A DNA stretch of 64,000 bases from contig CAZSFP010000003.1 of the NCBI GenBank assembly GCA_964606285.1, positions 20,967-84,966 on the forward strand. The letters run 5' to 3'. A model generated the notes under the pieces. The model made no database searches and was not told where the DNA came from. It saw only the letters and a program-made list of their open reading frames with translations. Made by a program: the position numbers and the translations under genes. Below are positions 62,750 through 63,033 of this stretch, in pieces. The number at the start of each line of letters is the position of its first letter. Position 1 is the stretch's first letter. The DNA comes from an uncultured Candidatus Saccharibacteria bacterium. Its GTDB lineage: Bacteria; Patescibacteriota; Minisyncoccia; Phycocordibacterales; UBA9973.

Positions 62750-62785
62750 AAAACAAAAGTTACCGCATATATGCGGTAACTTTTG
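62750..62785 (-). terminator. Intrinsic terminator downstream of the duplicated tRNA-Gly 3' fragment
   Basis: gttaccgcatatatgcggtaac hairpin followed by a U-run on the minus strand. Confidence 0.55.
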
Positions 62786-62815
62786 TTTTGTATGTGGTGC
62801 GGGATGGGAGAATCG
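62781..62815 (-). repeat. Direct repeat: a copy of the 3'-terminal 18 nt of tRNA-Gly(TCC) plus ~15 nt of its 3' flank, carrying an encoded CCA
   Basis: tgcgggatgggagaatcg at 62798-62815 is identical to 62963-62980 in the tRNA. The flanks ttttgttttgtatgtg and tttgtgttttatgtg are also similar. Confidence 0.65.
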
Positions 62816-62962
62816 GTCACAAATATTTTGTTACGCAAAATTTCGCGACCCCAACTCGGCCACGACCTAGCGGTCGGCTTCGCGGCCTGCATCTTTCGAT
62901 TCCCCAACCGCAGTAAAACACAAAAGCCCGAATGCTTTCGCATCCAGACTTTGTGTTTTATG

Positions 62963-63033
62963 TGCGGGATGGGAGAATCGAACTCCCGACACTAGTTTGG
63001 AAAACTAGAGTTATACCATTTAACTAATCCCGC
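62963..63033 (-). tRNA. tRNA-Gly(TCC), 71 nt, CCA not encoded
   Basis: Manual fold: acceptor GCGGGAT/ATCCCGC, anticodon loop TTTCCAA, T-arm GGGAG-TTCGATT-CTCCC. Confidence 0.85.

Follow-up and report, generated by a model that had tools for sequence, protein, structure and literature searches.

A 165-bp insertion in the tRNA-Gly(TCC) gene of the window (the whole 64,000-nucleotide stretch of DNA analyzed here) is probably a miniature integrative element that encodes no protein, that has inserted site-specifically into the segment of the tRNA gene bounded by the T-loop and the 3' end, and that would be moved in trans. An empty site in a relative demonstrates that the insertion is polymorphic; also, the insert belongs to a family of tRNA-linked elements that share a fold and that have arms (I and D; see below) cognate to the partner tRNA. 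Movement in trans, as well as the use of the folded junction and its target-like helix as the structure for recognition and crossover, we infer from comparisons of sequences; because no enzyme is encoded in the elements or enriched near them, the case for mobility is a comparative one.

The tRNA-Gly(TCC) gene is located on the minus strand at 62963–63033 (start at 62962/62963); its cloverleaf is intact, CCA is not encoded, and it is identified both by ARAGORN and by the Rfam tRNA model (70.9 bits). Its 3' end is repeated 165 bp downstream: the plus-strand sequence GTGCGGGATGGGAGAATCG is found at 62962–62980 (minus-strand feature D1, that is, tRNA positions 56–73 and one additional base) and again at 62797–62815, with 100% identity over 19 nt and a spacing of 165 nt (BLAST E-value of 6e-5 in the 64-kb window, where the 3' end of the second tRNA-Gly gene is the sole further similar site). 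The earlier note on this DNA had reported the repeat as 18 nt extended by ~15 nt of flank; the repeat itself stands and is exact over 19 nt, but the extension does not, because the similarity beyond it is weak (30 nt at 83%) and consists of A/T tracts of the type found at terminators (the tRNA-Arg in the window has a trailer of the same kind). The downstream copy, or ghost (D2; minus strand, 62798–62815), reads CGATTCTCCCATCCCGCA on the minus strand and is followed by CCA (62795–62797), whereas the functional gene is followed by CAT; the other three tRNA genes in the window likewise lack an encoded CCA. Behind the ghost and its CCA is a perfect 48-nt palindrome (h2, 62746–62793, assigned to neither strand), a bidirectional terminator that is shared with a converging 57-aa ORF. 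The earlier note was correct about this terminator, about the CCA that distinguishes the ghost from the gene, and about the GC-rich interval (55–62% GC, compared with 40% for the window).

On the minus strand, the interval between D1 and D2 is composed of three parts. The first, h (62914–62961), is an A-tract, a 13-bp GC hairpin with a GAAA loop, and a T-tract; it is an intrinsic terminator for tRNA-Gly(TCC) and, because of its G·U pairs, is scored as such by the terminator scan on the minus strand only (stem at 62923–62952, followed by the T run). The second, I (62897–62912; TGCGGTTGGGGAATCG), begins immediately behind the T-tract of h and is an imperfect inverted copy of the tRNA 3' end. The third is an 81-nt GC-rich core (62816–62896). 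The 165-bp insertion on the minus strand can be written as 62816–62980 or, as one of several equivalent permutations, 62798–62962. A scan of the locus finds no promoter-like site between h and I, and the 165-bp interval contains no plausible ORF. The locus has a Clp-like gene, a small ORF, and mscL as neighbors; there is no integrase belonging to the insert next to one of its ends, and the 165 bp accommodates no ORF. The XerC/D-type recombinase that had been placed at 17078 is real (17078–17989) and is located 45 kb from the insert.

The earlier note interpreted the arrangement as an attL/attR-like signature of integration into a tRNA 3' end and proposed that sister genomes be compared for the presence or absence of the insert; this comparison, together with the CCA asymmetry, supports the interpretation. 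In L144 (MscL 84% identical; same gene order and orientation as in the window), an identical tRNA-Gly(TCC) gene encodes CCA, and the element is absent. Over ~85 nt, the end of this gene together with its CCA and trailer (CTTCGC...TTCGCGGTGCACGCA) can be aligned with the corresponding ghost, CCA, and trailer in L001, a filled site from another sample (mscL 99.7% identical) that has the same tRNA-h-I-core-D2-CCA block as the window with four substitutions, two of which change G·U to G-C within one helix; the empty/filled comparison is that of one pair, L144 vs L001 and the window. Because the trailer of L144 matches the sequence behind the ghost in L001, the ghost is the displaced native 3' end; and, with D2, CCA, and trailer representing the original end of the gene, the inserted DNA is D1-h-I-core (165 bp in the window), so D1 was presumably supplied by the insert. 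The crossover can be placed anywhere in the 19-nt repeat, with its left limit at C56, at the three-way junction (...GUGAC|CGA in the element vs ...GGUU|CGA in the tRNA). In L017 and L023 (MscL 77%), the junction sequences are kept and the hairpins are different.

The insert is one member of a family. A search pattern constructed from the conserved junctions (TCGAAAGAYGNAGG...CCGAGTYGGG) matches at least 120 metagenome loci; among the matches listed, the core starts 50–76 nt (mostly 57–67 nt) behind a same-strand tRNA gene in 90 loci, and the partner tRNAs in these loci include at least 33 anticodon types for 16 amino acids. Throughout the 90 loci, the sequence behind the conserved ...YGUGAC is the partner tRNA's own positions 56–73; the ghost is identical to the 3' end of the partner at all 18 positions in 30 of the 90, and the sequence that precedes the core is the reverse complement of the partner 3' end at 18 of 18 positions in 20 loci and at 15 or more in 78. 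A covariance model of the family (R1) identifies 117 copies in 100 sequence sources, with two to four copies behind different tRNAs in some contigs; it matches the element in the window with 96.1 bits (E 1.4e−23), which is the single copy there, none being found at the other three tRNAs. A ghost is also found downstream of 21 of 99 further tRNAs in these contigs, compared with none in upstream controls. The named proteins on element contigs are from Patescibacteria, Paceibacterota, and Taylorbacteria, and the relatives of the window MscL are from Paceibacteria and Nomurabacteria; judged from these sequences, the family is one of the Patescibacteria (Paceibacteria, Taylorbacteria). BLAST and pattern searches of phage, plasmid, and viral collections returned no match, so an origin in any of these was rejected; a 19-mer scan of GTDB genomes returned chance matches in GC-rich genomes only. 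The earlier note had explained so short an insert either as a miniature element or as the remnant of a deletion; more than 100 copies of uniform plan and size support the former, and the latter found no support.

The family also allows the native end of the gene to be identified statistically. CCA follows the tRNA 3' end in none of 80 element-carrying genes (D1), in 11 of 44 ghosts with an intact 3' end (D2), and in 13 of 99 tRNA genes without an element on the same contigs (D1 vs background, p = 6e−4; D2 vs D1, p = 5e−6); in this respect, then, it is the ghost that behaves like the original gene end. Within single contigs, some tRNA genes encode CCA and others do not. Two other derivations were considered and rejected. 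That the ghost was retro-derived from a mature tRNA is disfavored by the occurrence of CCA in only 25% of intact ghosts, by the lack of a UGG complement in I, and by the CCA encoded at the empty site; that D1 and h are native, with insertion downstream of the native terminator, is contradicted by the absence of CCA from all 80 D1 ends and by L144.

Folding of the insert, which the earlier note had also proposed, identifies a three-way junction. On the minus strand of the window, I pairs with D2 as the closing helix around two hairpins (MFE −51.7 kcal/mol, z = −4.0), and the plus strand folds more weakly (z = −2.7); across the elements tested, the z-scores range from −4 to −8. RNAalifold applied to a 35-sequence alignment yields a family consensus composed of P1 (I:D2), J1/2 (GAAA), P2 (a GAC/GUC base, a tandem G·A internal loop, GGC/GCC, and a variable tip), J2/3 (GG), and P3 (GGUCGNG/YGUGACC and a variable tip). 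The window copy has the same GAAA and GG joints, with I as the 5' strand and D2 as the 3' strand of P1, P2 at ~62853–62893 (GAU/GUU, tandem G·A loop, GGCC/GGCC, variable tip; minus strand), and P3 at ~62815–62850 (GGUCGCG/UGUGACC and variable tip; minus strand); its core is identified by the MFE fold, RNAalifold, the covariance model match, and covariation. In the R1 alignment, which was fitted to R1 and hence leans toward the structure, 91.3% of the cells are paired and compensatory (both-side) changes are found in 27 of 30 pairs; none of 500 shuffles was as good as the real alignment, and slid controls were not close either. Even so, many compensatory pairs are located in P3 and P2, that is, in helices that are unrelated to the tRNA sequence. 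The excess of G·U over A·C cells (165 vs 69, with one near-invariant G·U in P3) implies that folding takes place on the tRNA-sense strand, either in RNA or in single-stranded DNA. Mean duplex energies in the family are −27.6 kcal/mol for I:D1, −21.4 kcal/mol for I:D2, and −13.6 kcal/mol for non-cognate combinations. A 'conserved h hairpin' was rejected: h is a generic A-tract/hairpin/T-tract terminator that differs between elements with near-identical cores.

With so well-supported a fold, the main rival to an integrative element is a structured non-coding RNA, beneficial to the host or domesticated, that would be expressed by read-through from the tRNA promoter and would function as a decoy, regulator, or ribozyme; its closing helix would mimic the acceptor/T-arm minihelix of the neighboring tRNA, ending in NCCA, and would be processed by RNase P, RNase Z, and the CCA-adding enzyme. 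The sense-strand fold with its abundant covariation, the z-scores, the conserved junction purines, and the low copy number per contig are what such an RNA would display, and CCA or CC follows intact ghosts in 16 of 44 cases vs 17 of 99 in the background (p = 0.017). However, a strong terminator is located directly in front of the module, with no predicted promoter behind it; in approximately half of the copies with an intact core, decay or truncation has affected the ghost, which would supply the closing helix with its 3' strand; the partner tRNA changes between genomes; tandem and nested fragments occur; and the relative L144 is element-free. Weakened by the terminator, the decay of D2, L144, and the changing partner, a functional RNA is unlikely.

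Comparison with known RNAs leads in the same direction as the Rfam searches, in which no family matches the element: cmscan with Rfam 15, at gathering and permissive thresholds, identifies only tRNAs in the window region and in 10 other loci, and ARAGORN finds no tmRNA in the window. Tested by eye, the order of motifs is, to our knowledge, unlike that in SRP RNA, RNase P RNA, tmRNA, the hammerhead, the cores of group I and group II introns, K-turn/box C/D RNAs, or retron ncRNA. The closing helix shares with tRNA-like RNAs (tmRNA, the bacterial Y RNA YrlA, and acceptor-T minihelices) the composition of an acceptor plus T-stem that sometimes ends in NCCA; however, the element has neither a T-loop nor an Rfam match, its helix copies the neighboring tRNA and differs from genome to genome, and its terminator is upstream. 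A group I or group II intron in the tRNA gene was rejected, because the insert starts with CGAUUC and ends with GUGAC (no terminal G, no GUGYG...AY), has no Rfam intron match, and contains a terminator.

In the reading that we prefer, an integrative element, the insert carries tRNA positions 56–73 (D1) and a terminator (h) of its own, which leaves the tRNA gene intact and terminated; the original gene end, together with its CCA and trailer, now lies 165 nt farther downstream as the ghost (D2). Behind h, I (the inverted copy of the target) and the core fold on the tRNA-sense strand into the three-way junction, with a closing helix (I paired with D) that reproduces the target duplex. A recombinase or nuclease provided in trans may recognize this folded junction, with cutting and joining predicted at ...GUGAC / C56, opposite the universal T-loop sequence; the element would be, or would have been, mobile. 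No unintegrated, circular form of the element was encountered. That no promoter separates h from the module is consistent with a self-insulating DNA element.

Such a structure would have precedents in single-stranded attachment sites: in the integron attC site and the attP(+) site of CTX phage, imperfect inverted repeats ~80–130 nt apart fold on one strand. The folded junction may be analogous to these, the likeness being a target-like duplex with bulges and a branched tip as well as strand-specific folding. In the element also, one strand folds into an imperfect hairpin that mimics a duplex partner, as identified by covariation and the G·U asymmetry, with P1 having the sequence of the target. 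The element differs, however, in that the branched tip is conserved and the stem is target-specific; and it has no R/L box consensus and no dif-like sequence, nor does the family alignment contain a GTTRRRY-type consensus.

We advance tentatively a more far-reaching possibility, that the family may represent a new class of protein-free mobile element of ~165 nt in which the three-way junction is the sole 'machinery' and one arm, which copies the 18 bp at the end of a tRNA gene, can be renewed to suit any tRNA, perhaps through fold-back copying over the terminator hairpin. If so, the target would be set by an 18-nt helix without a protein-specific att site, and the enzyme acting in trans would be a recombinase or nuclease that is guided by structure and, in effect, programmable; a conserved structured core with an exchangeable 18-nt target-matching helix is what a programmable insertion system would show.

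Several members of the family provide evidence of change within and between elements. Tandem arrays and internally deleted copies are present, and the ghosts are often truncated or interrupted, with I staying complementary to the tRNA. Cores that are 96% identical are found behind tRNA-Ser and tRNA-Glu, and likewise behind tRNA-Trp and tRNA-Val, in each case with cognate arms and unrelated h sequences; the same core with a different arm suggests either that the arms are re-made on retargeting or that the cores are homogenized by gene conversion. A pair of tRNA-Ala units in L075 shares 86% identity across tRNA and element (94% in the cores), and I fits one of them only; recombination between units, therefore, does happen.

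The L075 units are also compatible with spread of a cassette without any dedicated machinery, that is, by homologous recombination or gene conversion between tRNA genes (with the tRNA body to the left and D to the right) and by the promoter-tRNA-element block being exchanged horizontally. A candidate for such an exchange is the 289-bp block of L001 (1005–1291; promoter, tRNA-Gly, element, and ghost-CCA) that corresponds to 62794–63080 in the window: it is inverted relative to mscL and 90.7% identical to the window, with the adjacent mscL region 98.9% identical, and its left-hand neighbors (a Clp-like protein and a small ORF in the window) are different genes in the opposite order. Recombination alone, however, accounts neither for I arms that are cognate, and often perfect, at 33 anticodon types unrelated to one another nor for the constant junction at C56, so we judge this explanation improbable.

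Clustering of the ORFs over the 120 loci identifies housekeeping neighbors only, with no protein family enriched near the elements; recombinases, transposases, and reverse transcriptases are neither encoded in the elements nor enriched nearby in these loci. Large serine recombinases occur in four of the loci as separate islands. A cis-encoded enzyme was rejected on these grounds, that is, no candidate in the clustering, serine recombinases on separate islands, and a truncated recombinase fragment in L132.

Islands of 4.5–5.3 kb separate the tRNA gene from its module in three loci (L122:6600–11930, L028:2093–6560, and L132:6110–10763); the types of cargo at these loci are a large serine recombinase with a Schlafen/AlbA_2-HATPase protein, an N6/N4 methylase with a Z1/ResIII protein (restriction-modification), and a truncated recombinase with a phage RepO-like protein. 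These three distinct loci, each with cargo between the tRNA and I-core-D2, could be read in favor of an explanation in which a larger island or prophage left the insert as its scar, that is, as a CIME-like deletion derivative reduced to the two att-proximal ends. However, the compact plan, with I immediately behind h, is shared by more than 80 loci, and no recombinase family is enriched. Also, the islands in L122 and L028 are located at the D1/h junction and have their own short partial copy of D upstream of h, which implies that the island was inserted beside a pre-existing module; we interpret these two islands as showing accretion at the same tRNA, and the scar explanation is highly improbable.

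An assembly artefact (the collapsed repeat that the earlier note had named as a potential refutation) or a chance repeat has a negligible probability: same-strain Logan contigs do break at 62961 and at the palindrome, but L001, L017, and L023, which were assembled independently, have the same contiguous tRNA-insert-ghost arrangement, as do more than 100 other loci. The Logan contigs of the window strain (L002 and L004) end at the 48-nt palindrome and at the tRNA 3' end, the short-read assemblies breaking because of the palindrome and the tRNA 3'-end repeats.

Among known systems, the closest are the genomic islands and prophages integrated in tRNA and tmRNA genes that are catalogued in Islander (PMC4383910). 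Islands of this type share with the element a split tRNA gene that is regenerated by element sequence, a displaced native fragment at the far end, a block of identity that starts in the T-loop and extends through the 3' end, an empty site in a relative, and the accretion of further islands at the same tRNA. They differ in being kilobases in length, compared with 165 bp for the element, which has neither integrase nor cargo; in addition, the element includes a conserved three-way-junction fold as well as an inverted target copy, and one family serves at least 33 tRNA types. CIMEs are cis-mobilizable elements that are flanked by att sites and contain no recombination genes (PMC5704250); they share with the element attL/attR-like flanking repeats, the absence of a recombinase gene, and larger elements in tandem at the same site. 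However, CIMEs are decay products of one ICE or IME and share its ends, whereas no autonomous parent with the ends of the tRNA element was found (the L122 and L028 islands, situated beside the module, are bounded by junction repeats of their own, and no candidate came from the phage, plasmid, and viral collections), and the plan of the element is uniform across lineages. Thus, the element behaves as an integrative element in a tRNA gene and misses a defining feature of Islander islands (integrase) and of CIMEs (autonomous parent).

MITEs and the PATEs derived from IS200/IS605 are, like the element, small, non-coding, structured, and multi-copy, and are presumably moved in trans. The element, however, does not have the usual terminal inverted repeats, the inverted partner of I being the copy of the target itself; also, its duplication of 18–19 nt is the end of a gene (tRNA positions 56–73), and its targeting to tRNA T-loops is strict. 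We found no description of the element in the full-text literature searched, the coverage of which is incomplete; within that literature, the conserved three-way junction and the inverted target copy are features for which we found no description, and the family is apparently undescribed.

In this way, an odd repeat at a single locus leads to more than 100 family members whose fold is well supported. In the small genomes of Patescibacteria, essential tRNA genes are targets of tiny elements that restore the gene into which they insert, with one conserved core serving many different tRNAs. The family accounts for ghost copies of tRNA ends, for spikes of high GC content between genes, and for the breaking of contigs behind tRNA genes in such genomes; R1, together with the empty and filled sites, provides a handle for finding the enzyme.

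Other loci contain related or similar features. Two diverged elements in L018 (3476–3603 and 2618–2793, minus strand) have the same plan, that is, tRNA end, terminator, inverted copy, branched core, and ghost, and are located behind a tRNA-Gly(TCC) gene that here encodes CCA and a tRNA-Pro(TGG) gene; R1 misses both, the first folds with z = −4.0, and together they suggest that additional families are built on this architecture. Second copies of the element, degenerate or with internal deletions, occur at L001:38–138 (R1, 22.5 bits) and L017:1455–1540; both share ACTTTTTGNCGAAAAAGTTTTAGTCG.

The claim that the ruvB locus has the same architecture did not survive: ruvB (6087–7058) has no tRNA, no such repeat, and no member of the family nearby, and R1 finds no second copy of the element there even with filters off. 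The claim probably referred to the stretch at 7066–7240 (minus strand) downstream of ruvB, which is intergenic, has 60–62% GC, and folds with −60.4 kcal/mol (z = −3.8); it matches no Rfam family, has no nearby tRNA, and is not a member of the tRNA-linked family. Upstream of ruvB, an inverted repeat of 23 nt (91% complementary) encloses 102 nt (5829–5976), and a perfect terminator with 19-nt arms (5769–5811) adjoins it.

Finally, in L148 (105–225), a strain with MscL 97% identical, an insertion of ~115 nt is located exactly at the start codon of mscL; with its terminal inverted repeats (CCCGTTAGAGGC.../...GCCTCTAACGGG) and duplicated ATGGA, it is a different, MITE-like element.
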